In this document: positions 1 through 57,203 of the stretch, in pieces | Numbering within the stretch: the first letter of the stretch is position 1 | Layout: every line of letters begins with the position of its first letter | Origin: a virus | Length of the DNA: 57,203 nucleotides | IMG/VR virus record: IMGVR_UViG_3300033153_006620 | Coordinates: 1 to 57,203 of that record | Strand: one strand, 5' to 3' | Translations under genes and position numbers: made by a program | The notes under the pieces: model-generated | Seen by the model: only the letters and a program-made list of their open reading frames with translations | Databases searched by the model: none | What the model was told of the DNA's origin: nothing

Positions 1-114
1 TAAAATTTGAATGGGAGTTTCTTTTATAATTATTTTTTCGTCATTGGTCCCTCTCAAATCGGCCCCGCTCAAATCGGCCCCGCTCAAATCGGCCCCGCTC
101 AAATCGGACCTGTT
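1..114. repeat. Terminal direct repeat, identical to 57090-57203 (circular-assembly overlap or terminal redundancy; unique genome length 57089 bp)
   Basis: Base-for-base comparison of the two window ends. Confidence 0.95.
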
Positions 115-408
115 CAAATCGGACCTGCTCAAATCGGCCCCGCTCAAATCGGACCCGTTCAAATCGGACCCGTTCAAATCGGCCCCGCTCAAATCGGCCC
201 CGCTCAAATCGGCCCCGCTCAAATCGGCCCCGCTCAAATCGGACCTGCTCAAATCGGCCCCGCTCAAATCGGCCCCGCTCAAATCGGACCCGTTCAAATC
301 GGACCCGCTCAAATCGGCCCCGCTCAAATCGGACCTGTTTTCTTCAACGAGCTTTTTTAAATCGTTGCCTTCTGCTATTACATCACCATTTATCTTTTTT
401 AGATACAT
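1..408 (-). CDS. Pentapeptide-repeat protein, N-terminal part. The gene crosses the window junction and continues 57089 down to 56907 (about 196 aa on the circular map).
   Basis: ATG at 408 lies 6 nt after GGAGG (415-419). Sequence is MYLKKINGDVIAEGNDLKKLVEENR followed by about 20 x [S/N][G/R][A/S]DL. The frame is continuous with ORF 56907..57191 through the overlap. Confidence 0.85.
   Translation of the reverse strand, partial: MYLKKINGDVIAEGNDLKKLVEENRSDLSGADLSGSDLNGSDLSGADLSGADLSRSDLSGADLSGADLSGADLSGADLNGSDLNGSDLSGADLSRSDLNRSDLSGADLSGADLSGADLRGTNDEKIIIKETPIQIL
53..337 (-). repeat. 19 tandem 15-bp units (plus strand CTCAAATCGGCCCCG; minus strand GGGGCCGATTTGAGC = G-A-D-L-S) forming the coding repeat of the pentapeptide gene
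   Basis: Units counted directly at 53-67, 68-82 ... 323-337. Variants differ only at positions giving G/R, A/S and S/N. Confidence 0.95.
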
Positions 409-481
409 ATGCATCCTCCGTTTAATTTTTCCCCTTTACAATCCCAATTTATCAATCAAAGCCTTAATCCTGCGTTCATAT

Positions 482-1243
482 TCATTTTTTAATTACCCTC
501 CTATCATCCCCGCAAACAGACAATATTTTTTCAGAAGCTAACCGGCTAGCTACCCTATCCCCGAATCGTATAGCCACGTCTTTTATGTCCAGGTTGGATG
601 TGTACACGGTAGGCAAACAATGGCTATAGCGATAATCAACAATGCTATACCATGACTGTATCACATAATCCGTTAGTTTTTCGGTCCCAATATCGTCAAT
701 TATAAGAATGTCTTTCCCTTTAAATTTCTTATAAACTTCTTCCTCTGAAACCTCATTATTGCTGAAAGCTGACTTTAGATTTAATAAGATGTCGGTGGCG
801 GATTTAAACAGAAATTTCTCTATTTGCTTAGTAGCCAAATTTCTCATTAATGCCACGGCTAAATGAGTTTTTCCACATCCAACCGGGCCAGTAATGAAAA
901 TTGAACCTTCAAGCTTCTGTAAATTACTCAGATAATCATAAGCCAATTTATTCTTATCATCAATTTTGAAGTTTTTGAAAGAGCTATTAGCGTACCGTGG
1001 GGGCACATTACAGGCCTTAAAATAATTTGCCATACTTTGCCGCCTTCTAGCGAACTTTTGGCACTGGATGCTACACAAGCCCTTGAACAGGTATTCTCCA
1101 TCTTCATCATAACGGCAACTCTTATGCATTTTACCGCAATAAAGGCATTTAACCATTTCGTCATTGCCGTCATTTTTGGCGCCATCATCTGATATCGGCG
1201 TATTTTTCATTAATTTTTTGAGTACTTGACTGACTGATTCCAT
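482..1243 (-). CDS. DnaC/IstB-like AAA+ ATPase (helicase loader type)
   Basis: Walker A GPVGCGKTHLAVAL and Walker B ILIIDDIG; N-terminal Cys cluster CLYCGK..C..C; GGAG before the ATG. Confidence 0.8.
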   Translation of the reverse strand: MESVSQVLKKLMKNTPISDDGAKNDGNDEMVKCLYCGKMHKSCRYDEDGEYLFKGLCSIQCQKFARRRQSMANYFKACNVPPRYANSSFKNFKIDDKNKLAYDYLSNLQKLEGSIFITGPVGCGKTHLAVALMRNLATKQIEKFLFKSATDILLNLKSAFSNNEVSEEEVYKKFKGKDILIIDDIGTEKLTDYVIQSWYSIVDYRYSHCLPTVYTSNLDIKDVAIRFGDRVASRLASEKILSVCGDDRRVIKK

Positions 1244-1886
1244 TATTTGCTCCGTTGTTTTGATTTATAACCTCATTTTCCCAGCAATTACCGTTGAGAT
1301 AAACAAGAGGCCCTTTTCGGTATTGCTTATCTGGGGTGGATTCTACATATGCAGGTAATTTTTCTTTAATAGCTAATTTATCTTTGTCGGATAATTTGCT
1401 GTATTTCGATTGACACTTTTTCTTATCAACAGACTTTTTGTACATTTTCCAAAAATCTTCAAAAGGAAAAACGCCTTTGTTATAATTATCATTATCGTTA
1501 TCATTATAGTTCTCCTTCTCTTTATTGCTTAAGCCTTGTTTAAGCCTGGCTTCCCTTTTTTGTTTTCTAGCTTCCACACCCTTTTTTCCTGCTTTGGATA
1601 ATTTAGTGGATTTTTCCTCTAATTCGGCTAATTGTTCGTCAAGAAAATCAACTATTATATAATCACCTTCTCGTTTTATTATTTCACTTTCTATCAGTTT
1701 TTTTATTTTATTGGTTTTTTTTGGGAACTTTTTGAGTAATTTTTGGTATAAAACTGAACAATTTTTTAACCAATAATAGGAGCAAATTGAAACAAAAGCG
1801 CCTTTTATTGAGTCATTTTCCAGGGAAATATCCCCTGAATCCCATTCCTGACATGTGAAACGAAAGTATGGAAGCTCTTTAGCCAC
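1185..1886 (-). CDS. Replication organizer/initiator-like protein (assignment tentative)
   Basis: N-terminus LPYFRFTCQEWDSGDI..GAFVSICSYYW resembles phage replisome-organizer N-domains. It sits directly upstream of the DnaC-like gene and has a charged low-complexity middle. Confidence 0.4.
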   Translation of the reverse strand: MAKELPYFRFTCQEWDSGDISLENDSIKGAFVSICSYYWLKNCSVLYQKLLKKFPKKTNKIKKLIESEIIKREGDYIIVDFLDEQLAELEEKSTKLSKAGKKGVEARKQKREARLKQGLSNKEKENYNDNDNDNYNKGVFPFEDFWKMYKKSVDKKKCQSKYSKLSDKDKLAIKEKLPAYVESTPDKQYRKGPLVYLNGNCWENEVINQNNGANNGISQSSTQKINEKYADIR

Positions 1887-2152
1887 TATTTCTCTTCCGC
1901 CAAATCACAGGCCGCTGAAAGGATTACAAGCTGCGTCATGCCATCGCCAAAGACTCCTCCGGTTCGCTCCTTGGTTAGCTTTAAAACGGCAGCTAAGGAG
2001 CTAATCTCATACTCTTTACAGACATTGGTTATAAGAGCTTTCCAGGGCTTTATTCTTTTATCGTATTCATCACCGAAAAGAAATTTTATACTCTTCCGGG
2101 CCTGTTTTAATTTATAAGAAACTTCAAATACTTTTTCTATATCGGCACTCAC
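1886..2152 (-). CDS. Hypothetical protein
   Basis: GTG start 7 nt after GAGGTGGA; co-directional and abuts its neighbours; no motif recognised. Confidence 0.55.
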   Translation of the reverse strand: MSADIEKVFEVSYKLKQARKSIKFLFGDEYDKRIKPWKALITNVCKEYEISSLAAVLKLTKERTGGVFGDGMTQLVILSAACDLAEEK

Positions 2153-2155
2153 GAT

Positions 2156-2428
2156 TCAATCCACCTCTCTCAAAAGCTTTTGGGTGAACTCTTCAGAATG
2201 CTCCAACCACTCTTTGGCCCATCTGAATTTTGCAGCGGCATTTTGCATATGTCTTTTGCAAGCCTCTTCTTTTGTGAGGATTTCATCATGATAAATTTGA
2301 CTCCTATGATTTGACGATCCAGTGATTTTATATAATTTTAGAGTCACTTTAATCACCATTCCATAAGCCATATTGCAATCACCCATCCAGTAAACTTTAT
2401 CACCTATTTTTTTCATTTTAGTCTCCAA
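2156..2428 (-). CDS. Hypothetical protein
   Basis: Co-directional packed ORF; no motif recognised. Confidence 0.6.
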   Translation of the reverse strand: METKMKKIGDKVYWMGDCNMAYGMVIKVTLKLYKITGSSNHRSQIYHDEILTKEEACKRHMQNAAAKFRWAKEWLEHSEEFTQKLLREVD

Positions 2429-2433
2429 ACTAT

Positions 2434-2628
2434 TTATGAACCATTGTGAATTCTTCTGTCAGTTTTTTCTAAAACCAGCCTGGCGGCGGGTACTATGACC
2501 TCAGCTAAATAACCAATTGAGCCATATTTTTCCTGATTACCAGTGCAATAGTTCAAAACTTTTTTAGCCAAGTCTCGCGATAGCTCACGATAAAATACTG
2601 ATTGTGAACAATTACATTTTTCACTCAT
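2434..2628 (-). CDS. Hypothetical protein (start moved to ATG 2628)
   Basis: ATG 2628 is preceded by GAGG. The longer TTG-start version (to 2670) would begin inside the terminator U-tract. Confidence 0.55.
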   Translation of the reverse strand: MSEKCNCSQSVFYRELSRDLAKKVLNYCTGNQEKYGSIGYLAEVIVPAARLVLEKTDRRIHNGS

Positions 2629-2668
2629 TTTAACCTCATAAGGCCCTGGCCAGCTTTCGAGAATCTGC

Positions 2669-2698
2669 AAAAACCGAAACGCCGCGAAGGCATACCGG
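2669..2698 (-). terminator. Intrinsic-terminator-like hairpin plus U5, about 65 nt downstream of a consensus promoter and upstream of the next gene
   Basis: Minus-sense CCGGUAUGCC-UUCGC-GGCGUUUCGG (9 of 10 pairs incl. 2 G-U) followed by UUUUU. Confidence 0.6.
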
Positions 2699-2766
2699 CC
2701 AGGACTTTTTAAAACTTTACTTTTGAATTTAGCAGATTCATAATTTTAACTTTTTAATCTCCCCTA

Positions 2767-2795
2767 AATATCTAAAATTAATCAGGGGGTGTCAA
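2767..2795 (-). promoter_or_regulatory. Sigma70-type promoter TTGACA-N17-GATATT
   Basis: Perfect -35 at 2790-2795, 17-nt spacer, -10 at 2767-2772. The same block recurs at 4289-4317. Confidence 0.65.
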
Positions 2796-3072
2796 GGGGT
2801 TTGTTTAAAAGCTCATCTTTTGTGTATGTATGTTTGATTCCCGATAACACAAAGCCTCCGGAACTATATTTTTTAGCTTCAGATTCAGTTAGATCTCGTG
2901 TGTATTTTTTGGGGAACCTAACGTTAAATGCTCCGATTCCTTCGAGAAACATTCCGTAATAATTTTCTTCGTCTTCTCTGGTCACATGGCAAAGCTCAAA
3001 CTCTTCGTTTATTTGTAGCTCCCAGATTTTATGCTCGGAAGCTCTGGCCATTTTATATTCGTCTTTTTTCAT
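2782..3072 (-). CDS. Hypothetical protein
   Basis: Co-directional ORF; GAGGATGAG before the ATG. Confidence 0.6.
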   Translation of the reverse strand: MKKDEYKMARASEHKIWELQINEEFELCHVTREDEENYYGMFLEGIGAFNVRFPKKYTRDLTESEAKKYSSGGFVLSGIKHTYTKDELLNKPLDTP

Positions 3073-3090
3073 CTCATCCTCACATTAAAG

Positions 3091-3414
3091 TTAACCGTTA
3101 TTTTCCAAGAAATTCTGAAGTATATCAACCTGATTTAGTACGTTATAGGTCTCCTCTTGTATGTATTTGTTTATCAAAGTTTCTTTTACTTCTAGAAAAT
3201 TCGTTTCGTTCTTTAGAGAATCGCTTTGAGGGTTGGCTTTGACAAACAAATCAGTATTGGAATAGCCCATATTGTTACCCAAACTATGCTTACCAATCTT
3301 TAATCTATTAAGAATCGGGGAGACTGCAATTGATTTGCAAGCACTTTCAAAATCCTCTTCAAATCTTTTCTCAGCTCTTTTTTCGATTGCTTTTTCTAAA
3401 AATGATTTATTCAT
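3091..3414 (-). CDS. Hypothetical protein
   Basis: Co-directional ORF; GGAG before the ATG. Confidence 0.6.
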   Translation of the reverse strand: MNKSFLEKAIEKRAEKRFEEDFESACKSIAVSPILNRLKIGKHSLGNNMGYSNTDLFVKANPQSDSLKNETNFLEVKETLINKYIQEETYNVLNQVDILQNFLENNG

Positions 3415-3441
3415 TTTATTCTCCGTTGTTGATGTTAGTGT

Positions 3442-3729
3442 TTAAAATAGCGTGTCATAAGATGACTTGATCAGACCTTTAAAAGAACATCCTAAATCTG
3501 CGCTACCAAATACCCCCTCTTCAGACGAATCGTCTCTTATGAGATTAATCCTGATTTGCCCGCGCTTTATATTGATAGAAATATTCGCTCCAGGTTCAAT
3601 TCCATCCATAGCAGATGTTAACAGCTCATTAAATCCACGTTCCTGAAGTTCCTTTTCAACGTCTTCAAATTTAACAAGACTTCCATCTTTAGATTTGGAT
3701 AAGATGGTTTTTAGTTCGTATCGTTTCAT
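3442..3729 (-). CDS. Hypothetical protein
   Basis: Co-directional ORF; 4-nt overlap with the upstream gene. Confidence 0.6.
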   Translation of the reverse strand: MKRYELKTILSKSKDGSLVKFEDVEKELQERGFNELLTSAMDGIEPGANISINIKRGQIRINLIRDDSSEEGVFGSADLGCSFKGLIKSSYDTLF

Positions 3730-3986
3730 TTAGAAACCTCCAAGACAAAACCCCTAGATTTAATCTGTGCTATGATGCCGATTAGCACCGGGGCTTTCTT
3801 TGTTGAGTACAATGCTCCATCGGATCTTATGGGACCTATAGTAAAAACAGTTTGATTGTCAAGATCTCGAACCAAGTTCATTGAATTTCTTATGCTCTCC
3901 CAATGTACTACATCGCCTATTTCAGCATGAGGTACACCGGGGGAAACTGGGTATGTGTTTTTTAGTACTTTCATCTCAATCTCCAA
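3726..3986 (-). CDS. Hypothetical protein
   Basis: Co-directional ORF; ATGA-type overlap with the downstream gene. Confidence 0.6.
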   Translation of the reverse strand: MEIEMKVLKNTYPVSPGVPHAEIGDVVHWESIRNSMNLVRDLDNQTVFTIGPIRSDGALYSTKKAPVLIGIIAQIKSRGFVLEVSK

Positions 3987-3988
3987 AG

Positions 3989-4156
3989 TTAAGATTTTTT
4001 ATTAATTTGGTCCTGAGCCCACTCAAGCAAACCTTTCTTTACAATGGGACCGAAATTCATGGCACTTAGATTTATACCAAAATGTCGTCCTTTTGATGAG
4101 TTACCGAACAACCAGTATTCACCCTCTTTGAATCTTATCTCTGCATTTAATTTCAT
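3989..4156 (-). CDS. Small hypothetical protein (55 aa, below the ORF-track cutoff)
   Basis: ATG 4156 is preceded by AGGAGAATAAC. MKLNAEIRFKEGEYWLF... fills an otherwise empty gap after promoter 4289-4317. Confidence 0.5.
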   Translation of the reverse strand: MKLNAEIRFKEGEYWLFGNSSKGRHFGINLSAMNFGPIVKKGLLEWAQDQINKKS

Positions 4157-4288
4157 GTTATTCTCCTACGTTTATTACTGCAAGGGCCGGGCAATGGAAA
4201 TCGTAGGAAAAACCATCCCGCAGGTCGCCGAAACGAACCCTCACAAATTTAATTTAAAACTTTCCTACATTTTTTAAATCTATACCTA

Positions 4289-7023: not shown

Positions 7024-8709
7024 TTAGAGTTTTTCTATTGCCTCATAATGAGAATTTAACAATACTCCCAAGTCGCATTCAATGATGCCCAAGGCTATAA
7101 CTGCGGCTTCAGTTTTAACTACCGGACATCCTATAGCTTTTATTTCATTAAGGAAATTGAGGAGCTTTTCTTTATCGGGCCTACGTTTTTCTTTTGCTAT
7201 TGCCGCTTTTTCGGCTTTCTCTTCAGTCGCAAGCTTTTCTTTCTCTTTACGCTCAATATCTTCTTTAGCCTTTTTCTCAGCATCTTCAGTAGCCTTTTTC
7301 TTAGACAGCTCCAATTCCTCGGCTCGCTTTTTTTCTCTTTTGACGGCGGATTTCACGTTGTCTGTGAAGATTTTCAGTTCTTCATCGGATGTTAGGGTTG
7401 AATAATTAAAATAACCGATGATGTGATTATATTCAGTATTTTCATAACCCAAATCACACGATATATAACCGAAAGAGACTAAACATTCAATAGCGGAAAA
7501 TTTTCTCCTGGCAACATCTTTTTCGTCTTTTTCAATTTGCTCTTTTCGGGATTTTTCTTCCTTTTCTTTGAGTGCTGATATATCAGTTTTTAGCTGTTTA
7601 AAATATGTTTCAAACTCTTCAATTTCAAAATTCAAGATTTCAAGTCCAAGTGATAATTTTCCGTAGCAATAATGATCGTCAAGAGTTTTATGTAGCCCTA
7701 AACCAAGTAACAAATCATGTCTACGTTTTTTTTCTTTCTTCTCAGCTACAAGTTTTTCTTGTTCTTCTTTTTTCTCCTTTTCCTCTACTTTACGATCATG
7801 AAGTTTTTGTAGAGTGTTCTTTAGCTTCTGTAAATCTTCGTCGCATGTAAGCATAGAATAATGGTGCTTCTCAACAAAACTATTATTTTCGTGATCAAAA
7901 TTACCACCGTCACAAGCTATAAATCCAAGCGATATAAAAAAACTAATTGCAGAAAGCTCTCTTTCTTTCATTTCGGATTTTAGTTTTTCATCGGCAATGC
8001 GCTTGTTTTCATCTTTGATTCTTTTGTTCTCGGCTTCCTGGTCAGTCTTGATTTTAGCAAGTCGCTTTTCTTCCTTGCGGTTATTCTCTGCAATTTCAGT
8101 TTGCTTATCATCCTCAATTTTCTTTAAACGAGCCGTTTCTTTTTTTTCAGCGTCTACGGCAGTTTTCCATTTTGTAATATGAATAAGTTCCGCCGACATT
8201 TCATTTTCATCAAAATTCCAAATTTCATTGTCAGTAATTTGATGTTCTCCGTATACATAAGCAGAGCCATTGAATACAGCCCCGGCATCGCGCACCTGTT
8301 TTAATTGCGCTTCGTGACGGTCTTCTTTGGCCTTTTGCTTTTCGGCTGCAATAAGCTTATTTTCCTCTTCAATGAAATCTCTTTTTGCTTGCAAGCCTTT
8401 ACTGATGGGTTTCAACATATCTAACAATCTATTTTTTTCTGCATCAAATCTTTTTCCAGCTTCATTAACCCTTGCTTTTGCAAATTCATGTTTTTTGTTT
8501 ACGTTGCTTACGTGAGCTTTTGCAATTTGATGTTGTTTGTATACAAGATTAAAGCCTTCCTTATCATTCACACCGTTTATTTTAAGATTCTCACATTTAA
8601 TTTTAAGCTCTTCGATATCTACATCGGTCAATCCACACGCAATATCTTTTACTGTAGACATATCGATAGGGATAACTTCTTTCCCGGTTTTCTGCGTTTC
8701 GTTATTCAT
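7024..8709 (-). CDS. Lys/Glu-rich coiled-coil protein with repeated Cys-Asp modules; recombination-module accessory protein (function unknown)
   Basis: 561 aa. Three to four modules carry (L/F)G(F/Y/I)I.CD.G (aa 259-268, 412-421, 540-547) between K/E-rich stretches. The gene is next to the recombinase-like gene. Confidence 0.7.
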   Translation of the reverse strand: MNNETQKTGKEVIPIDMSTVKDIACGLTDVDIEELKIKCENLKINGVNDKEGFNLVYKQHQIAKAHVSNVNKKHEFAKARVNEAGKRFDAEKNRLLDMLKPISKGLQAKRDFIEEENKLIAAEKQKAKEDRHEAQLKQVRDAGAVFNGSAYVYGEHQITDNEIWNFDENEMSAELIHITKWKTAVDAEKKETARLKKIEDDKQTEIAENNRKEEKRLAKIKTDQEAENKRIKDENKRIADEKLKSEMKERELSAISFFISLGFIACDGGNFDHENNSFVEKHHYSMLTCDEDLQKLKNTLQKLHDRKVEEKEKKEEQEKLVAEKKEKKRRHDLLLGLGLHKTLDDHYCYGKLSLGLEILNFEIEEFETYFKQLKTDISALKEKEEKSRKEQIEKDEKDVARRKFSAIECLVSFGYISCDLGYENTEYNHIIGYFNYSTLTSDEELKIFTDNVKSAVKREKKRAEELELSKKKATEDAEKKAKEDIERKEKEKLATEEKAEKAAIAKEKRRPDKEKLLNFLNEIKAIGCPVVKTEAAVIALGIIECDLGVLLNSHYEAIEKL

Positions 8710-16529: not shown

Positions 16530-17834
16530 TCACCCTCTCCTAACTAATTCATGATACAACGTTTTACTAGTCCAGTTATTAACAATAAGCTCAAAATCCG
16601 GTATTCTTTCTTTATAGTAAATAGATTTTGTATTGAGCCAATTATCAAGATACACCTGGGTATGAGCTACTGATTGCATTATCATATCCACATCTACATC
16701 AACTAACTTTCCCTTTTTCCATTTATAGTCTGTGATTTTGAAATGAGGTTCAAGCAATCCAATGGCTGTCATATCCCTATTCATCCTAATAAAATTCTGA
16801 TAGCACTCTTCAACATTAGGCTTTGTTTCTGCCATCATATCACCTGGAACCCACTCGGATAAGTCGCCGATTCTTTCCCCCTTTTTGTTCACAATGATTT
16901 TTTCCGTTCTTGCAAAATGTTGAGGCATTGAATTTAATATGTAATACATACCATCACTTAATAATCCGGTATCGTATTTAGTTCTTAAATTACCTATCCT
17001 CATCATGCTGTCAGGGTCTCTTGCTGGATTAGCCTCTAAACGTACGCCACATTCTTTTATACGTGCTTGCACTTCCTCATCTTCAATGTACTCCATGTCG
17101 GGTAAGACTCTTATAAACACAACAACATACCGACCCCTCTCACTGGGAGAAACTCTTAGCATCCTAAAATGAGGTTGCAAAGCATCTATGATTTTTTCTA
17201 AACAAAAGTCTTCTTTTTGCTTTGGCGTCCAATTTCCTTCTTTGGCAAATACTTTACAACTCGAATCATTACTTGATATAGGACCATCCAGAATTAAATA
17301 TTTCTCAGTCAATGCGGCAAGTTTTTTTGCCCACAAATAAGGCTCTGCACCGTATAGCAACGCGTCTTTATAAAAATGATGAATGACAGATCCACAGTAG
17401 ACAACATCAAATTTATTATAAAAGGCTCCACAATATTTTAATAAGCAATCATTAGCCTTCTTGAGTCCTTCATAATCCAGATTATTAAAATATTCCCATG
17501 ATTTGTCAATGCTAATGTCTCGCATTTCACCATGAATAAATTTGATATTATCAATGTTATGATATTTTCTTACATCCTCTGAAAATTGATGATATTCCGG
17601 GGCCACCTCATACCCCACTACTTTATCAAACAAATGCCTATACCCAAAGCACATCAAACCTTTGTTTGAGCCTATATCAAGTAATGTTTCACCACCCTGC
17701 AATAATTCTGGCATAGTCTTTTTTGCAAGCTCAAATCTATTTACGGATTCACTTCCATAAGGCTTAAGAGTTTCTATGTTATAATGTTGATTCCCTGGGT
17801 ATGTTAATTCTACCTCTCTTTGTGCTAGGCTCAT
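16530..17834 (-). CDS. Class I SAM-dependent methyltransferase with a large C-terminal domain of unknown function
   Basis: Motif I LLDIGSNKGLMCFG and acidic post-I VVGYEV. Confidence 0.65.
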   Translation of the reverse strand: MSLAQREVELTYPGNQHYNIETLKPYGSESVNRFELAKKTMPELLQGGETLLDIGSNKGLMCFGYRHLFDKVVGYEVAPEYHQFSEDVRKYHNIDNIKFIHGEMRDISIDKSWEYFNNLDYEGLKKANDCLLKYCGAFYNKFDVVYCGSVIHHFYKDALLYGAEPYLWAKKLAALTEKYLILDGPISSNDSSCKVFAKEGNWTPKQKEDFCLEKIIDALQPHFRMLRVSPSERGRYVVVFIRVLPDMEYIEDEEVQARIKECGVRLEANPARDPDSMMRIGNLRTKYDTGLLSDGMYYILNSMPQHFARTEKIIVNKKGERIGDLSEWVPGDMMAETKPNVEECYQNFIRMNRDMTAIGLLEPHFKITDYKWKKGKLVDVDVDMIMQSVAHTQVYLDNWLNTKSIYYKERIPDFELIVNNWTSKTLYHELVRRG

Positions 17835-20470: not shown

Positions 20471-21862
20471 TTATATCATCCATTTTTTCACAATCTCACT
20501 TTCCCGAACTGAAACCGGCAAATCTTTTAATTCAATAACTTTAACACCTTTCCACGCTTTTTCATGTCCTTCGGCGGTATGAAAATTATCAGCATTAGGT
20601 AATTTATCCCATTTCTCCCTTTTCCATTCAACCAAATCAACATGCCCATAAGCGTCCTTTTCAGCTTCATAAATATTTTCAATCTTTTGGAATAGTGTTT
20701 TTTCGTCTTCCCTAACATAAGTAAAATGATGGAATCTAAAATCATTGCATCTCAATACCCCCTGTATACCACATCCTCGGTGCCCTTTAAAGCTGTTTGA
20801 TTGCAACCTATAAAGCACGATAGGAGCTAATGATTCAGGCGGTGATATCCTATAGAAAGGTGATTTTATGTAAGTGTGCATAAAACAGGAATAAGCATTG
20901 GCTTTCTGATTTTCATTAGCAAAATGTATTATTCCTTTTAAATCTTTTCCAGGCCAAACCTCATCGGTATCGAAGAAAAGACATAATTTAGCGTCAAAGT
21001 TTTTTATTATATAATCCAGGCCGAAAAGATATTGCTTTAATTGATTCTGAGATGTGTAATCTAGATTGACTATTTTATTCTCATTGTCATGCGATTTAGC
21101 CCATTTTTCAATTATTGGCTTGACATCATTACCCCACTCCCCGCACCAAGACAAATCTGAATGCACAAATACAATCTTTTCGACATGAGGATATATGCCT
21201 TCAATAGCCGGGATTATAAACTCTTTTCCCCGCCACACCTTGCATAATGCCACAACTTTTTCCATTTTTGCTCCCCATTTTTTCTGAAAATATGCTTTGT
21301 TGGTATTCCAATAGAATCCGCCCTGGTTTTTTGCTTCGTTTAAATGAGTTAATTTGCACCGGTTATCAGTTACGAAATACTTATCATGTCCGTATTTTTC
21401 TAGCATTTGCCTACAAAAATCATCGTCTTCAAATCCACTACCGATAAATCCTTCATCGAATCGTAATTCGGATTTTCGGAAAGCTATACACGCGGTAGGG
21501 ATTTTCGTTGAAGCTATTAAGTCAACATTTAAATCATAGTTTTCCACCATTGTATAAGCGCATTTACCGTTTTTATTCATTAGCCGGGCAGATGATATTA
21601 TTACATTTTCATCGGTTAATAAAGCCCGGACCAAATCGATATCCCACCCCCAATAGAACCCGGTCATATCATCATCCATCATTATAACGATGTCTGAAGT
21701 GGCCCTGGCAAGCCCTTCGTTACGATTTTCAGAAGCACTGCCATCTATCCCGGTGAAAATTATCTGGCCTTCAGATACGCGGGTTAACGCTACGTCATTA
21801 ACCTGATTTTGAACTTCAGATAAATGTTTGCATGATGGAATTATGATGTCAATTTTAATCAT
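20471..21862 (-). CDS. Two-domain glycosyltransferase (N-terminal GT2 with DDD; second GT-A-like half)
   Basis: IDIIIPS..GIDGSASENRNEG..IVIMMDDDM; the second half has LCLFFDTDEVW (DXD-like). Confidence 0.65.
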   Translation of the reverse strand: MIKIDIIIPSCKHLSEVQNQVNDVALTRVSEGQIIFTGIDGSASENRNEGLARATSDIVIMMDDDMTGFYWGWDIDLVRALLTDENVIISSARLMNKNGKCAYTMVENYDLNVDLIASTKIPTACIAFRKSELRFDEGFIGSGFEDDDFCRQMLEKYGHDKYFVTDNRCKLTHLNEAKNQGGFYWNTNKAYFQKKWGAKMEKVVALCKVWRGKEFIIPAIEGIYPHVEKIVFVHSDLSWCGEWGNDVKPIIEKWAKSHDNENKIVNLDYTSQNQLKQYLFGLDYIIKNFDAKLCLFFDTDEVWPGKDLKGIIHFANENQKANAYSCFMHTYIKSPFYRISPPESLAPIVLYRLQSNSFKGHRGCGIQGVLRCNDFRFHHFTYVREDEKTLFQKIENIYEAEKDAYGHVDLVEWKREKWDKLPNADNFHTAEGHEKAWKGVKVIELKDLPVSVRESEIVKKWMI

Positions 21863-25612: not shown

Positions 25613-28600
25613 TCAACATGTTAATTCTCTTGGAGATGAGCCAGCATCTTTTATTGTATAATCGCCAATAGTGCGTCCCGTTGATCCTGCACTATTCATC
25701 TTCCCATTTTCATTAGTCCATCCAGTGATATCCCTATCAGTGTTTAAAGCATTATTAAAATTATCACACAATGGACCGAAAACCCCAGGCGGTTGATATA
25801 CATGAACACCTATTTCAGCCGTACCAGCATATATGTCAATCCTTATCATAGTAACAAATCCCTCTACATCTTCATCATCGGTATGAAAATGGCTATTCAC
25901 TTTCACAAAATCCATGATAGCAAGTGGAGTAGGTTCCAAGACTTCTTTTATTGACACTTTGAATTTGAATTGCCACACATTCAATACGAACCATTTAGCT
26001 ACCCATTCAGCAAGAGGAAGCGACTCATAATGATATTTAAAATCCATCTTCAAATTGTTTCTTATTTTGTAGATATCTTTGGATATACCAATAAATCTTT
26101 TTATTTGAGTGCTTCCTGTGTTACTATCAATAAGAGTATTTTCATTATACTTTTGCAGGGCTGCACTGAATTCTGAAGGGATATAATAATCCCAATTTAA
26201 GTGATACTCTGTAAATATTTCATTTGTTCGTCTGAATTTTGGAGGACTTAAGGAATCGACTAATATATTTGAATCATCAAAAGTTCTAGTTGGCGAACCT
26301 TGTGGGTAATCATCCGGATTCATTGATTTAAAGGATATTTTATCATCAACATCAATAACAGCACATGCCCATAGGTTTTGCAATAATTCATTCAATGTTG
26401 CTTTAGTGCTTAAATCCTGCGTAAATTGCCGCCTCCAATTCCATCCTGAGCGGGTACTGAGCGCCATAAGTGATGTAATAGAAGTCGCATCCCATTGATT
26501 TAAATACATGCTTGGAGAATTCATGATATCTGTTACAATAGCTTCAGGTTCGCTTGAAAATATTCCTGAGAAGGTGCGGCCCCTGGCGGGTGCAAAAAGA
26601 GGCTTATCTATTGTCTCGATTTCCTGTTCATAATACAGTTCCGGTCCTTTTATAAATTCAAGTCCCACATACCAATTAATGTTCGAAGGCATAGGATCCG
26701 TAGATGAAAATTGATTACTAAGAGATTTATTGACAATTAAAAACTCCACATCGGTAACTTCATCCCATACCTGATCATCTCCAAAGGGTTTTGTTGATAG
26801 GTCGAAAATATCACGGCCTTGATATAATATATTCCTTTCATCTTCCTCTTGTGCAGTCGATAACCGGGTCAACACACCCCCCACAACCTCCCACATTTCA
26901 GATAGAGTCCCTCCCGATGACATTAATTTCATTCTAGTTCCATTATCAATAGGATTATCACCGCTGAGGCCCCACGAACCACCACTGTATTCATACAATT
27001 TATTATCAGTCTTATTCCAAAGAAAATCACCCTCGACCTGTGAAACCGTGGCAGTTCCCGGAAATATATAGGATATTTGATATGAATATCTGGACGTCAA
27101 TGATGTGGTACTTTCCCTAAATCCTCCGTTATTGAGGAGTCCATCTGGAAAATTATTTAATTTTATCTTTCCTATTGTTTTTTCTATATCTAATGAAACA
27201 CCGAGACTAGTCTCATTCGCTTCGAAGTCGTGCTTCCAACCATCACTGTCAACGTAATCTCCATTTTTCTTTTTAAATCTTAGTATCAATTTAAAAGGAG
27301 CATTAAAATATCTAAATTTTCCATCGCTATATATAGTTTTCACAAAACTATTGATTTCTAAATTCATACAAAGCTTTATATTGGTACTACTGTTAAACTT
27401 AGCCTCATTAGTAGCATTTCTTGCAACTGGAAAGCTTATAGCATGAACGAAAGTATTTTCACCCAAGGCGTCAGATATGTTTAAATCCTGCTTAGGGTTT
27501 AAGTGAGAATACCGCCTAATCTTTAAAGATTTCGGACTGGTTTCGCCTGAAGCTAGGATGTCACCTCTAGGGGTTTCGCTGCCGCCTTTCATATAAGCTG
27601 TATATGCATATGAATAAGTAGATGTTGCGGCACGTTTCATTTGTTTAAAATCAGTCTCAGTTATATTCGTGATCGACCCTGGCGGAGTCAAATCAACATT
27701 AGGCATTTGAGCGTTCAAATCTAAATTTTCCGTACTGCCTTCGTTTATATCGGCGAATCCAAGAACGCCTTTTTGCCAGAGTATAGGTTTCCATCCCCCA
27801 AAATCAACGGGACCATGAACGGCAACTTTTGATTCATCAACGCTTGTTCTTGGATTTAATAGTACAAGATTCTTATCAGCATTAATGATGTATTCGGAGT
27901 CAGGTAATTTTTTTATGAATTTACCGGTATCATCCAATCCGAACAATTCAAATACCTCAGTAAACGAGGATCCCACAGATCTACCAAAACCACCACAAAT
28001 CTCTTCATCAATTTGAAATTGGTATTTCCTTTTGGCAATTTTTATGGTGAGGTAATCTAATGTATTTGGCGGATCCGCTCCGCCCGCATCGGGTTGAGTC
28101 GTAAATGCTTCATCGATTGTAAGTACATAATAGTCGGAGCCCGCGCTATTAATGGATTCTATTTTTCTGGTTTCATCTATATTTTCTGAGCCAGATTTCG
28201 TGTCGGATATTATCTGAATAGAATAAACAGCATTATCGAGATCAGCAATTAACTCACTTGAAAGTAAATATTGATTTTTACCACTCTGCTCACTTTTCCT
28301 GATATATATTTCTTTAAAAGGTGAATTGTTGTTTATTTGACAACTAGCGGTAGGTACAGAATTAAATTCGGTATCACCGGAAGCTTTTCTCTCGACACTA
28401 ATATATTCGATATCGGTAGAAATGTTTTGTAATGCGGCCAGTTCATGTTCACCATAAGTTAAATGTGGTGGTTTGCCTAGGAATTGCGTTTGAACATCGT
28501 CATACCTATTATTAGAGATTCCAGTATCTTCAATAACACTGTCAGGAAACTTGTCATTTTTGTTTAAAGAAAATGGTTCTACTTTATATTTATAATTTGC

Positions 28601-29761
28601 ATAATCAAATTGTGAACTTATATTCCTTCCCGTTGAAATTTTCGTATATACCGGACCGGATTCCCATATACCTACAATACATTGATTTCCAAAGAATCCT
28701 ATATCATTATCAATTATCCATTTCCAAAATTTAGTTCCGTTATAATTATTGTTAAGAGCAAATGAAAACCCTTCTCGCTTTTCTATTGAGGGTCCGGTAT
28801 TTATGTTAATATTTTTCCCCGGTAATTTTATTGATCCTAAATTGATTAACCCAGACCTATAAACCTTGGAATCATATACTGTTGTAGAAAAAGCTGCTAA
28901 ATAAAATGATCCATTCTTAAATCCGTAAGTAGAATTGTCAGCGGCCACGGTATATAATATCCGCCAAAACCCCTTGGAAACGATATCACCCGTTGCCAAA
29001 TCACCGGCGGCAATGACAGTTTCAAGGGTTATATTACCATCGTCAATCTTACCCGCTACTTTATGGAACCCGGTTGATGTAACTCCTGTACCGCTTACTA
29101 TATAAATGTAATCACCAGGGACAAAGGTGTAATTTTCAAAGGCATCAGTTTGAGTTAATTTCTTAGTTGAAGCTGTCCATGTAGCTGTCGCCAATGTTAT
29201 AATATTAGTTACTTCCCGTAAGACATTATCATCGGTATCCATCCATCTCTGTCCTACAGCGCTTGGAGTGGGTATTGCCGATTGAATGTCGTCAGCTATG
29301 ATAGTGTCTATCTGTAGCAATAAATCAATGGCGGAGGTGCCGCCTTCATTCGGGAGTACATCCGATTCATCCACTCCAGCAAGTTCTACAGTAAGATTTA
29401 AAGTATAGAGATTATTTGTAACACTAAAATCCTCTTCCTGTAAACTTTTTGGAATAAGTATATAGCAGTAATAATTGGTAATGTCTTCATAAGGCCAATC
29501 AGGATAAAGCGTTTCCCCTGAATTTTCAGGACGTAAAGCGACTTTTTGACCGGCGTTGGAAATAAGATATTCAGTAAGGCTTAAATAATTAGCTTGAGAT
29601 ATTTTAGTTATGGTAAAAGTGCATGATTTTCTTATCCTTGCCCCGAAATTAATTATAATATCAGTACCATCAATAGCCGTTAAATATTTAACGGTATTTC
29701 CTTTAGGGGTTGCAGCGCTTTTTATATCGCTAAGACTGTATGATACAGCGTTTATAATCAT
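25613..29761 (-). CDS. Large distal-tail / central fibre (host-specificity type) protein, 1382 aa
   Basis: Start MIINAVSY overlaps the upstream stop (ATGA 29758-29761); call rests on size and position downstream of the tape measure. Confidence 0.6.
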   Translation of the reverse strand: MIINAVSYSLSDIKSAATPKGNTVKYLTAIDGTDIIINFGARIRKSCTFTITKISQANYLSLTEYLISNAGQKVALRPENSGETLYPDWPYEDITNYYCYILIPKSLQEEDFSVTNNLYTLNLTVELAGVDESDVLPNEGGTSAIDLLLQIDTIIADDIQSAIPTPSAVGQRWMDTDDNVLREVTNIITLATATWTASTKKLTQTDAFENYTFVPGDYIYIVSGTGVTSTGFHKVAGKIDDGNITLETVIAAGDLATGDIVSKGFWRILYTVAADNSTYGFKNGSFYLAAFSTTVYDSKVYRSGLINLGSIKLPGKNININTGPSIEKREGFSFALNNNYNGTKFWKWIIDNDIGFFGNQCIVGIWESGPVYTKISTGRNISSQFDYANYKYKVEPFSLNKNDKFPDSVIEDTGISNNRYDDVQTQFLGKPPHLTYGEHELAALQNISTDIEYISVERKASGDTEFNSVPTASCQINNNSPFKEIYIRKSEQSGKNQYLLSSELIADLDNAVYSIQIISDTKSGSENIDETRKIESINSAGSDYYVLTIDEAFTTQPDAGGADPPNTLDYLTIKIAKRKYQFQIDEEICGGFGRSVGSSFTEVFELFGLDDTGKFIKKLPDSEYIINADKNLVLLNPRTSVDESKVAVHGPVDFGGWKPILWQKGVLGFADINEGSTENLDLNAQMPNVDLTPPGSITNITETDFKQMKRAATSTYSYAYTAYMKGGSETPRGDILASGETSPKSLKIRRYSHLNPKQDLNISDALGENTFVHAISFPVARNATNEAKFNSSTNIKLCMNLEINSFVKTIYSDGKFRYFNAPFKLILRFKKKNGDYVDSDGWKHDFEANETSLGVSLDIEKTIGKIKLNNFPDGLLNNGGFRESTTSLTSRYSYQISYIFPGTATVSQVEGDFLWNKTDNKLYEYSGGSWGLSGDNPIDNGTRMKLMSSGGTLSEMWEVVGGVLTRLSTAQEEDERNILYQGRDIFDLSTKPFGDDQVWDEVTDVEFLIVNKSLSNQFSSTDPMPSNINWYVGLEFIKGPELYYEQEIETIDKPLFAPARGRTFSGIFSSEPEAIVTDIMNSPSMYLNQWDATSITSLMALSTRSGWNWRRQFTQDLSTKATLNELLQNLWACAVIDVDDKISFKSMNPDDYPQGSPTRTFDDSNILVDSLSPPKFRRTNEIFTEYHLNWDYYIPSEFSAALQKYNENTLIDSNTGSTQIKRFIGISKDIYKIRNNLKMDFKYHYESLPLAEWVAKWFVLNVWQFKFKVSIKEVLEPTPLAIMDFVKVNSHFHTDDEDVEGFVTMIRIDIYAGTAEIGVHVYQPPGVFGPLCDNFNNALNTDRDITGWTNENGKMNSAGSTGRTIGDYTIKDAGSSPRELTC

Positions 29762-30138
29762 GCCAGGGGAACCTTCAATATATTCTGATAAGTAACAGAC
29801 ATTTCCCAATGCATAGGTAAATTAGCTGAACGGGACGGTGTCGTGTAACCCTTTATATATACAGTATTACTAGTATTGGTTCTTAAAAATGGTGAAATCC
29901 CTGGAGTATCTAAAGTAACTTGAGCGCCTGTATTAGTGTCCAAAAATTCAATGAAGGCTTCAATGTTAGCATCTTTAATTCTGTATTTTAATGATATTCT
30001 TTCATTACGCCATGCCGATGCGCTTTTTTGTACATTATCCCATTGACCATCATCTTGAGGATAAGATAGATTATTAGATTGCACTACCGGTTGAATAGGG
30101 TAGAATATTTCAGCTCCTGTATTTGGTACGGTAGGCAT
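29758..30138 (-). CDS. Minor tail protein
   Basis: Position in the distal-tail block; overlapping stops and starts on both sides. Confidence 0.45.
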   Translation of the reverse strand: MPTVPNTGAEIFYPIQPVVQSNNLSYPQDDGQWDNVQKSASAWRNERISLKYRIKDANIEAFIEFLDTNTGAQVTLDTPGISPFLRTNTSNTVYIKGYTTPSRSANLPMHWEMSVTYQNILKVPLA

Positions 30139-51620: not shown

Positions 51621-52811
51621 TCACCCCTTTATCACAGCCAAGGGAGACAATTCAACGACAATTTCCACTAAGTCACTTTGATTTTCCATAACAGTAAATA
51701 TGTCTTTGTACGCCCCCGGAGCCTCATCCAAATTGGACTTATGCCGTATTCCATGAATTATACCTTGAGAATCTAAGATATGTTTTTCGTCTTCAAAATT
51801 AAGATTTTTAATAGCTTTGGTTCTACTCATTTTTCTACCGGCTCCGTGAGAACATGAATTAAATGATTCAGGGTTGCCTCTGCCTTTTGTTATATAGCTT
51901 TTAGTCCCTTGTGAGCCCGGTATTATTCCCAATTCCCCTTCACGAGCGGATGTAGCGCCTTTGCGATGTACAATAACATTCTTCCCAAAATGATTTTCAT
52001 ATTGTGCAAAATTATGATGTATGTTTATTTCCTTGTCAAAATCACAATCCAATATATCCGTAAAAGATTCTTTTATTTTATCCAACATTAATAGCCTGTT
52101 CGCATATGCAAATTCGAGAGCGTAATTCATGGCCTCTAAATATTCTTTAGATTCAGAGGTATCGATAGGGAGAAATGCAAGACCGTCATCACCTTTAAAA
52201 TCCGGTATATTCGAGAACCATTTTTTGCATAATTTCTGAGCTATTTTGTTGTATTCATTTGCTATTTTATAGCCAAAATTTCTTGAGCCAGAATGAACCA
52301 TTATCCATATAAACCCGTCAGATCCTCTCTGTATTTCGATAAAATGATTTCCGCCGCCCAACGTTCCCAATTGTTTCCGGGCCGATTTAATATTTTCATT
52401 GACTACTTTTATTAGTCCCGGATATCTTTCAAAACCCTTCCAGTATTGATCTTTTTTGTGGTGATTAAATCCTACCGGTATTTTCCCGCGAATACCGCCC
52501 TTGAATTCCGCAGATCCTCCCATTATTCCTTTAAGCTGCTCATTTGTTATTTCTGTCAGAGAGGTTTTCACGGCGCACATCCCACACCCGATATCCACAC
52601 CGACAGCGTTCGGGACTACTACATTTTCCGTAGCCATAACACCGCCTATTGGCATTCCATAACCCTGATGTGAGTCTGGCATGATAGCAATATGTCGAAA
52701 AACAAATGGAAGGTTGGCTAGATTTTTGGCTTGTTCTAAGGCCCCGGTTTCAATATCATTTAACCATAACTTTACGGGTAACTTTTCGGTATCTATGACA
52801 TATTCCATCAT
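51621..52811 (-). CDS. rtcB: RtcB-family RNA ligase (3'-phosphate/5'-hydroxyl)
   Basis: Full motif set: GVDIGCGM, GGGNHFIE, HSGSRNFG, HRKGAT, SCSHGAGR. GGAGG lies at the MMEY start; the exact start (52811 or 52808) is uncertain. Confidence 0.95.
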   Translation of the reverse strand: MMEYVIDTEKLPVKLWLNDIETGALEQAKNLANLPFVFRHIAIMPDSHQGYGMPIGGVMATENVVVPNAVGVDIGCGMCAVKTSLTEITNEQLKGIMGGSAEFKGGIRGKIPVGFNHHKKDQYWKGFERYPGLIKVVNENIKSARKQLGTLGGGNHFIEIQRGSDGFIWIMVHSGSRNFGYKIANEYNKIAQKLCKKWFSNIPDFKGDDGLAFLPIDTSESKEYLEAMNYALEFAYANRLLMLDKIKESFTDILDCDFDKEINIHHNFAQYENHFGKNVIVHRKGATSAREGELGIIPGSQGTKSYITKGRGNPESFNSCSHGAGRKMSRTKAIKNLNFEDEKHILDSQGIIHGIRHKSNLDEAPGAYKDIFTVMENQSDLVEIVVELSPLAVIKG

Positions 52812-52831
52812 ACCTCCATTTCTGATTTTTA

Positions 52832-52923
52832 CGGCAATCCCCAAAGGCATTCGTGCATGGCAGCCTAGACGGGGATTACCGCCGAAAATTATCAGACAGT
52901 TAATTGTTTGTTTGAGCCATGCA
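52832..52923 (-). promoter_or_regulatory. Structured 5' leader of rtcB with nested or competing inverted repeats
   Basis: 11-bp stem CGGTAATCCCC/GGGGATTGCCG (52881-52871 with 52842-52832, one G-U). Its loop carries GCCATGCA, complementary to TGCATGGC at 52923-52916. Confidence 0.5.
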
Positions 52924-54694: not shown

Positions 54695-55492
54695 TCATAA
54701 TAATTCCATCTTTTTATCATTTGTCTTTTCAAACATATCAAGCGTTTTATATTTCTGTTTGATATGTTTGTTAATCAGCTTTACAGACTCTTTGTAAAAA
54801 TCCTTTTTTATCTCGAATCCGTAAGTGGGCCGATTCAATTCATGAGCAGATATCAGAGAGATACCAGAGCCAGAAAGAGGATCTATCACAACTTCCCCTT
54901 CATCCGTGAATATATTTATCAGGTTTTTTATCACATGTATACTCTTTTGTGTGGGATGAATCTTTTCCGTTTCGGTATCTCTTTTCCAATCCATACAATT
55001 AAAAATCATCTTTCCCTTATTGTTAAACTTCGGGAGCTTATCACGGTAAAACAAGATAGCGTATTCACAGTTGCCAACTATTTTCATATTAGCTTTCAAG
55101 ACTTGAGCGGAAAAGTTTTTTCTGAACACTAAATTTATGTATCCATTCAAACCGTATTTTTTAGCTAATTCTATTAAAGAAAATTGCTGCATGAACTCAC
55201 AAAAGACAATCATACATGGAGCTTTACCTTTATCTTTAGGTTCTTTTCTCAACATTTTACTGCAAAAATGCATGAATTCGGAGGGTCGAAAATCTTTATC
55301 CGTGTCGAAAAATTCTTTGTTGGCTTTGTCGCTTTCGCCTTGCTTATTGTCACCATCTACATACCAACTTGGATTAGAAGCGTAAGCATTGTTGCCTAGG
55401 TTATAGGGTATATCTGCCAGGATTAACTGAGCCTTCGGTATCCCATAAACTTTGAAGTTCTGGTAATGGTCATTATAAAGTTTCACTTTCAT
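54695..55492 (-). CDS. DNA methyltransferase, beta-class N6-adenine/N4-cytosine type
   Basis: Motif IV ILADIPYNLG (DPPY variant) lies N-terminal to motif I VIDPLSGSGIS. Confidence 0.8.
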   Translation of the reverse strand: MKVKLYNDHYQNFKVYGIPKAQLILADIPYNLGNNAYASNPSWYVDGDNKQGESDKANKEFFDTDKDFRPSEFMHFCSKMLRKEPKDKGKAPCMIVFCEFMQQFSLIELAKKYGLNGYINLVFRKNFSAQVLKANMKIVGNCEYAILFYRDKLPKFNNKGKMIFNCMDWKRDTETEKIHPTQKSIHVIKNLINIFTDEGEVVIDPLSGSGISLISAHELNRPTYGFEIKKDFYKESVKLINKHIKQKYKTLDMFEKTNDKKMELL

Positions 55493-56906: not shown

Positions 56907-57203
56907 TCAGCCTATTCTTTTATCGCAAATCGAAAGTAATATCTCTTTGTTTTCATCCCAAAATTTTAATGCGTTATAATCCATTTTTTCTATGCGAGAA
57001 TTCTTAAATTTTTTCCAGTTTTCAAAAGAATGAAATTCACATCCTATTTTCATATGTTCGTCAAATATGATAATATTCCAATGTAAGCCTAAAATTTGAA
57101 TGGGAGTTTCTTTTATAATTATTTTTTCGTCATTGGTCCCTCTCAAATCGGCCCCGCTCAAATCGGCCCCGCTCAAATCGGCCCCGCTCAAATCGGACCT
57201 GTT
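56907..57203 (-). CDS. Pentapeptide-repeat protein, C-terminal part (same gene as 1-408; 57090-57203 duplicates 1-114)
   Basis: ..GADLSGADLSGADLRG followed by an 80-aa non-repeat C-terminal domain; stop at 56907. Confidence 0.85.
   Translation of the reverse strand, partial: NRSDLSGADLSGADLSGADLRGTNDEKIIIKETPIQILGLHWNIIIFDEHMKIGCEFHSFENWKKFKNSRIEKMDYNALKFWDENKEILLSICDKRIG
57090..57203. repeat. Terminal direct repeat, identical to 1-114
   Basis: Base-for-base comparison. Confidence 0.95.

Follow-up and report, generated by a model that had tools for sequence, protein, structure and literature searches.

The subject of this analysis is a minus-strand gene in a 57,203-nt stretch of viral DNA (IMG/VR virus record IMGVR_UViG_3300033153_006620, positions 1 to 57,203; hereafter the window), whose product contains a tandem array of 19 pentapeptide units encoded by near-identical 15-bp repeats. 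According to structure prediction, this product is a pentapeptide-repeat right-handed beta-helix protein. Its C-terminal domain marks it, at the sequence level, as a new member of a large, barely characterized family of phage and prophage proteins. Relatives in this family differ in array copy number by whole units and are hypervariable at outward-facing repeat positions. We consider the chances about even that the protein is an early accessory, host-directed, probably anti-defence protein of a tailed phage, in which the solenoid surface would serve as the binding site.

Gene, array and predicted fold

A reading made earlier from the DNA letters alone (the sequence-only reading) had placed 19 near-identical 15-bp repeats at 53-337 on the minus strand, and this array is real. 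Tandem Repeats Finder (TRF) reported it at 49-332 with a period of 15, 18.9 copies, 92% matches, no indels and a score of 463. No other array in the window scored above 111, and the array with that score was the terminal copy of the same one. Counted in the phase 53-337, the array comprised 19 units of 6 nucleotide types, 10 of the 19 being identical. Its minus-strand translation gave NRSDL, SGADL, SGSDL, NGSDL and so on, and in the A(D/N)LXX phase the 19 units covered residues 28-122. The consecutive pentapeptides described earlier were recovered, with a count of 19 rather than about 20. Plus-strand open reading frames (ORFs) over the array, at 7-360 and 11-541, were dismissed as out-of-frame readings of the repeat.

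The coding sequence (CDS) crosses the circular junction of the genome and reads complement(join(56907..57089,1..414)), or ..408 from the second ATG. Circular joining and translation yielded a single ORF of 198 aa from the first ATG and 196 aa from the second. The junction falls inside the C-terminal domain, between ..ETPIQIL and GLHW.., and restores the family consensus PLQILGLxW. Because the join reproduces this consensus, the circularization is biologically sound. The second ATG (408-406), with its 196-aa product, appears the likelier start because a GGAGG motif lies 6 nt from it, whereas the same motif touches the ATG at 414-412. The 25-aa N-terminus ending at 408 in the sequence-only reading agrees with this choice. 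A non-repeat C-terminus, which that reading had given as 80 aa at 56907-57089, was also present; its length is 76 aa and it is encoded by 1-48 together with 56910-57089.

Profile searches and structure prediction agreed on the fold. Pfam PF00805 (Pentapeptide) matched with E=6.9e-41 and 137.8 bits against a cut-off of 20.2, PF13576 and PF13599 likewise exceeded their cut-offs, and every match in a PDB sequence search was a pentapeptide-repeat protein. AlphaFold without an alignment gave the repeat region a predicted local distance difference test (pLDDT) score of 88-94. With 55 sequences, the mean pLDDT was 85.7, with 90-96 in the repeats, 88-93 in the C-terminal domain and a weaker linker between them. 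The predicted cap has strands at residues 4-6 and 12-15 and a helix at 16-25, and the repeat region of the model has one beta-bridge residue per 5 residues. When the model was compared with the PDB by Foldseek, the top 49 matches were all pentapeptide-repeat structures, the best being Np275/276, synthetic solenoids, HetL, Rfr proteins, MfpA, QnrB1 and AlbG; against BFVD, the best matches were phage 'pentapeptide repeat' proteins. The 19 uninterrupted units correspond to about 4.75 coils of a predicted right-handed quadrilateral beta-helix, followed by a 76-aa C-terminal domain predicted as alpha/beta with four strands and three helices. The sequence-only reading had proposed a pentapeptide beta-helix and named structure prediction as its check, and the prediction returned that fold.

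The same reading had likened the repeats to those of Qnr and MfpA; we rejected membership of the Qnr/MfpA type. NCBIfam scores were 46.5 bits against a cut-off of 240 for Qnr and 41.6 bits against 360 for MfpA, and all Qnr subfamily models scored far below their cut-offs. The predicted solenoid of about 4.75 coils has no interrupting loops, and the 76-aa domain takes the place of the dimerizing helix. Identity with the type III secretion system (T3SS) effectors PipB and PipB2 was discarded on the same basis, at 63.6 bits against a curated cut-off of 274 and 45.4 against 354, respectively.

C-terminal domain family and array variation

The family is defined by the C-terminal domain. With this domain alone, tblastn found 158 phage records (Caulobacter, Acinetobacter, Salmonella P22-like, Rheinheimera and uncultured phages), a word-index, alignment-based search found 3,174 proteins, and a profile search found 2,848 clusters at 50% identity that carry it. 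Among the 150 clusters listed, the domain lay near the C-terminus of 70-295-aa proteins. Members include Salmonella ST64T orf232, phage L orf232, epsilon34 gp42, Acinetobacter prophage proteins, Rheinheimera Barba gp045 and Vibrio phage 24 gp60, and the nearest metagenomic members are 58-64% identical to the window protein. The domain motif ..IGCxxH..W..F....I..MD..A..FW.. occurs in the window protein with all invariant columns present (G154, C155, H158, W163, I171, M174 and A178). PHROG phrog_31567 covered residues 103-195, with E=2.2e-18 on the domain alone, and phrog_37032 matched too; both are annotated as function unknown. Relatives share a similar cap (MKxFEIKxRFxGxVLF..CVEAAV). The architecture taken as the mark of the family, a short cap and a nucleotide-homogeneous solenoid array directly before the C-terminal domain, was found in the window protein as well. 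Pentapeptide-repeat genes have been annotated in many phages and then ignored; the window gene is now linked to one large family of them through an unnamed C-terminal domain.

Known domain collections returned little for this module. Pfam gave scattered single matches only across 28 members, a PDB profile search gave nothing at E<=10, and the NCBIfam and PADLOC searches gave nothing for the C-terminal domain. Foldseek on the whole model was dominated by beta-helix matches.

The domain also occurs in other arrangements. In P0204, P0222, P0225, P0201 and P0166 it is fused to a YdcK-type hexapeptide beta-solenoid (SGNAxV; PF18836). Since it accompanies either pentapeptide or YdcK hexapeptide solenoids, the C-terminal domain is the constant module and the solenoid the exchangeable one. 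P0122 (295 aa) and P0124 (272 aa) contain two copies of the domain, in the tandem order solenoid, C-terminal domain, solenoid, C-terminal domain. Two relatives on viral contigs, L001 and L002, matched in the repeats only and had different C-terminal regions, and were not accepted as orthologues. Contig L002 (IMGVR_UViG_3300044452_000142) holds three pentapeptide-repeat genes in about 4 kb (87-4170), none with the C-terminal domain. In Rheinheimera phage Barba17S, a second repeat protein (gp043, L007:1843-2820) is encoded 0.7 kb upstream of the family member; its approximately 30 tandem NTGN[RWQ]-type 5-residue units belong to a different class, annotated PF01469.

The units of the window array are young at the nucleotide level. 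Synonymous differences among them number zero, and G+C content at third codon positions (GC3) is 0.79 in the array compared with 0.28 in the rest of the gene and 0.33 genome-wide, the array being written in the minor codons GGG, AGC, GCC, TCC and TTG. Recent expansion or homogenization, as proposed in the sequence-only reading, fits these values. Six family members, the window protein and five others, had 15-35 units with 86-92% unit identity and almost no synonymous differences. We dropped positive selection as a strong claim from the zero count because the array holds few distinct mutational events. Identity reached 94.5-96% at shifts of 8 and 9 units, but a higher-order periodicity of this kind was not significant once the choice of shift was corrected for (p=0.13).

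Copy number varies among near-identical relatives in exact 15-bp steps, which bears out the in-frame length change proposed in the sequence-only reading. Three Rheinheimera Barba phages from one host strain (L014, L015 and L007) share flanks at 100% identity and show length differences of 60, 120 and 180 nt (4, 8 and 12 units). These differences are whole four-unit coils, and other Barba isolates differ by 2, 5, 7 or 11 units; a whole-coil preference is not established in the Barba arrays. When more Barba and P22-like phages are included, the locus still varies in length by multiples of 15 bp, apart from a few cases, and in protein clusters with conserved flanks the length offsets were 0 mod 5 aa in 28/28, 22/22 and 6/6 cases. 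Phage L and ST64T, which are >99.9% identical, differ by a 15-bp deletion in orf232 (PMC8022706). In the P22-like prophage phiSPU1, the pentapeptide-repeat gene pipB3, probably the same gene as ST64T orf232, varies from 7 to 27 pentapeptides among S. Pullorum strains (PMC6449608).

Variation also concerns the solenoid surface. Among 27 copies from Acinetobacter, no variation was seen at the inward core positions i-2 and i, whereas the outward positions i-1, i+1 and i+2 had entropies of 1.0-1.4 bits, and 20 unit repertoires were present.

A near-perfect 15-bp pentapeptide array of about 21 units was also seen on an unrelated GC-rich phage-like contig (L005:40-350; Ga0315284_10157618). It shares a 30-nt exact match with the window array within unrelated flanks, probably a coincident codon choice for ADLSG.

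Possible functions of the solenoid

An anti-defence role had been suggested in the sequence-only reading, and a precedent within the same family now stands beside that suggestion. Vibrio phage 24 gp60 (24_60; L013:12900-13322) matched the C-terminal-domain profile with an hhalign probability of 97.6% and E=3.9e-12. Deletion of 24_60 makes the phage far more sensitive to the RexAB-like abortive-infection system Sucellos, and escapers in 24_60 carry N110/N115D and Y112R, 5 residues apart in the repeats (bioRxiv 10.1101/2024.07.02.601686). Placed on the repeat register, these changes map to outward-facing positions. The gene positions of relatives are of an early type: in ST64T, orf232 is flanked by ral and gene 17 within the early-left operon, where P22 has different small genes, and close relatives of the window protein lie in early operons adjoining cro/cI-like helix-turn-helix genes.

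In the mechanism that we propose, the outward residues (i-1, i+1 and i+2) of the solenoid would bind a host protein, and a role shared across the family, for example anchoring or oligomerization, would fall to the conserved C-terminal domain. The surface of the window protein would present a dense aspartate ladder, with which the protein could pose as nucleic acid and decoy a defence sensor or enzyme that binds DNA. The array would gain and lose units by slippage or unequal recombination with the frame kept, and length and surface could shift on very short evolutionary time scales.

Charge bears directly on the decoy. The window array contains 19 Asp and 5 Arg, for a net charge of -14, and the whole protein has a net charge of -16 and an isoelectric point (pI) of 4.5. 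Pentapeptide-repeat structures rise about 4.8 Å per coil. An array charge of -14 over roughly 23 Å would give a linear density close to that of B-DNA, and at such a density a nucleic-acid decoy role is plausible for the window member. DNA mimicry, which the sequence-only reading had put forward for the protein, cannot be what the family has in common, because the net charge of cap plus array centres on about -1 (median; range -9 to +6). The arrays of ST64T and of phage 24, the sole tested member, are neutral or slightly basic.

Several observations weigh against an anti-defence role for the window protein. The only tested relative, gp60, is ~28% identical over the C-terminal domain, and its array is neutral or basic; its target may not be transferable to the window protein. 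The functional evidence consists of one preprint on one defence system. PADLOC gave no family at E<=1, megablast of 19.6 kb of the window against cultured phages gave no match, with no cultured phage close, and the charge distribution of the family speaks against DNA mimicry as a mechanism shared by its members. Finally, the repeat gene follows a replication initiator and a helicase loader with no detectable promoter, an arrangement that would fit a replication-linked role too.

Such a role would make the protein an accessory of the replication module, with the solenoid as a rigid spacer or adaptor to the loader, the helicase or another part of the replisome and with no immunity function. Apparent co-transcription with the initiator and the DnaC-like loader is consistent with it: the gap between loader and repeat gene is about 70 nt, and promoter and terminator scans around the repeat gene found nothing above shuffled expectation. 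In the same direction, the family member of Caulobacter phage Jess A follows DNA polymerase I, and the gp60 gene of Vibrio phage 24 lies between helicase/methylase genes and primase. We nevertheless judge this explanation unlikely, since the gene is dispensable and replaceable in P22-like phages, phage 24 without gp60 still grows in the absence of Sucellos, and hypervariable surface positions are more in keeping with an arms race than with a conserved contact in the replisome. A DNA mimic directed at topoisomerases in the manner of Qnr, MfpA and AlbG, which would bind gyrase or topoisomerase IV of the host or the phage, either modulating supercoiling or protecting the enzyme while the phage replicates, has a similarly small chance in our estimate. 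It shares the fold and could draw on the negative charge of the array, the same replication neighbours in the window and in Jess A would suit it, and phages do encode gyrase inhibitors, for example Igy and Gip (PMC10886550). The low Qnr and MfpA scores, the short loop-free solenoid with a different C-terminal domain and the often neutral or basic arrays of the family count against it, and the only functional data available for the family implicate an abortive-infection system instead of gyrase.

Less probable still is a prophage gene of benefit to the host, acting as a defence or superinfection-exclusion factor or as a PipB-like secreted effector. Many copies reside in Salmonella and Acinetobacter prophages, ST64T orf232 adjoins superinfection-exclusion genes, the phiSPU1 gene was named pipB3 for T3SS-effector similarity (PMC6449608), and the Hailong defence system includes a pentapeptide-repeat protein. 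Against this stand the lack of a PADLOC match, the low PipB score, operons that are lytic-early rather than lysogen-expressed, and the phage 24 data, which show a benefit to the phage and not to the host.

The anti-defence reading could extend to the family as a whole, although we hold this extension to be doubtful. The family would then be a reprogrammable immune-evasion scaffold resembling a contingency locus, in which the array yields acidic, basic or aromatic solenoids that retarget or tune the inhibition of defence sensors. The C-terminal domain would stay constant and could also be combined with the YdcK solenoid, and the window protein would be a DNA-like decoy variant. If such surface retargeting is true, these genes would represent a common, easily recognized class of fast-evolving phage counter-defence proteins and could serve as markers for host-range engineering. 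The thousands of Salmonella and Acinetobacter prophage copies would allow direct comparison with host defence content.

Genome, assembly and known systems

The window represents the genome of a tailed phage, closed into a circle of 57,089 bp, with bases 1-114 identical to 57090-57203. Genes for a large terminase subunit, a portal, a major head protein and a tape measure are present, and nearly all genes lie on the minus strand. Both contig ends fall in or beside the array, so the unit number of 19 is an assembly-derived count and remains provisional. An artefact in which short-read assembly collapsed or expanded the repeat at the contig ends, affecting the whole array or its copy number alone, is in our view very improbable. 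Besides the position of those ends and a terminal overlap that stops inside the array, such an artefact would be in line with the equivalent array of Vibrio phage 24, which was misassembled in GenBank and required polymerase chain reaction (PCR) and Sanger sequencing (bioRxiv 10.1101/2024.07.02.601686). A second assembly of the window phage for comparison was sought with flank and array patterns in viral contigs, and none was found; the array pattern in metagenome contigs had a single match, the unrelated L005 array, and exact-protein look-ups for two neighbouring window genes gave no match. On the other side, neither the array nor the circular junction interrupts the ORF, and the cap and C-terminal domain are those of a family whose members regularly carry such arrays. 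The longest exact repeat inside the array is 60 bp, so an assembler with k>60 could resolve it. The array certainly exists; what is uncertain is its count of 19. Such arrays misassemble easily and tend toward contig ends, a practical point for their recovery. The 114-bp overlap ending inside the array may indicate a branch of the assembly graph there; 114 bp is not known to correspond to an assembler k-mer size.

The features of the repeat gene and its surroundings are collected in Table 1. DNA methyltransferases also lie near the family member in Vibrio phage 24 and in L011/L012. Elsewhere in the window, an RtcB-type RNA (tRNA-splicing) ligase is encoded at 51621-52850 on the minus strand (phrog_1075, E=2e-123); in a phage, such an enzyme suggests that RNAs cleaved by anticodon nucleases of the host are repaired, which would be a further counter-defence function. 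A 1,398-aa tail-region ORF at 25613-29809 on the minus strand had no PHROG match at E<=1e-5, nor had the ORFs at 7024-8709, 16530-17834 and 20471-21862.

Table 1. Features of the repeat gene and its surroundings in the window
Feature	Position	Strand	Evidence and remarks
CDS, 5' two-thirds	1..414	-	N-terminal cap, whole array and first 16 residues of the C-terminal region
Shine-Dalgarno GGAGG	415..419	-	Read from the sequence; 0 nt to ATG 414-412, 6 nt to ATG 408-406
N-terminal cap, about 25 aa, MYLKKINGDVIAEGNDLKKLVEENR	338..408	-	Predicted beta-hairpin and helix (AlphaFold)
15-bp array, 19 units, [A/S]DL[S/N][G/R]	49..337	-	Residues 28-122; TRF, Pfam PF00805, AlphaFold
Linker and start of C-terminal domain, RGTNDEKIIIKETPIQIL	1..48	-	Joined ORF, family alignments
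Rest of C-terminal domain, GLHWNIIIFDEHMKIGCEFHSFENWKKFKNSRIEKMDYNALKFWDENKEILLSICDKRIG	56907..57089	-	Stop codon 56907-56909; ORF list, tblastn, alignments, pLDDT 88-93
DnaC-like helicase loader	482..1243	-	Upstream of the repeat gene; PHROG phrog_50, E=4.4e-51
Replication-initiator-like gene	1185-1886	-	Precedes the loader; phrog_270/9327
DNA methyltransferase	54695-55492	-	phrog_67, E=8e-36; five small genes downstream of the repeat gene
Terminal overlap	57090..57203	.	Exact duplicate of 1-114; circular or circularly permuted assembly, not extra sequence; ends within the array

Among known systems, Vibrio phage 24 gp60 (SBVc24_0060) has the same cap, a nucleotide-homogeneous pentapeptide array and a homologous C-terminal domain. 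Its gene likewise lies in an early region, near DNA methyltransferases, and contains an array that is hard to assemble. Beyond the low identity of the C-terminal domains, the invariant His is Tyr in gp60, and its ANLRG-type array has about 8 units (GenBank version) compared with 19 acidic units in the window protein. For gp60, the host and target are known. ST64T/L orf232, with epsilon34 gp42 and probably phiSPU1 'pipB3', has a homologous C-terminal domain at 35% identity (tblastn). Tandem 15-bp units without synonymous differences, documented copy-number polymorphism and an early accessory slot are further likenesses. In contrast to the window protein, orf232 has ADLRG units with a net charge of about 0, and it is longer in the N-terminal region and extended at the C-terminus. 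It belongs to a temperate enterobacterial phage and is placed between ral and gene 17, whereas the window gene follows replication genes.

The proteins Qnr, MfpA, AlbG and McbG share with the window protein the quadrilateral beta-helix of A(D/N)LXX units and an anionic surface. Repeats in Qnr and MfpA are degenerate, unlike the nucleotide-identical units of the window. The window solenoid is about half as long and lacks loops A/B and the C-terminal dimerization helix, an unrelated 76-aa domain being present instead; Qnr and MfpA have about 8-9 coils per monomer and a C-terminal helix for tail-to-tail dimerization, and Qnr has loops A and B (PMC10886550). The phage and plasmid DNA mimics Ocr, ArdA, Gam and gp5.9 resemble the window protein as small, very acidic early proteins, and its estimated charge density is near that of B-DNA. 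Their folds are unrelated to the one predicted here and share no sequence or profile similarity with it, and the relatives of the window protein are not consistently acidic.

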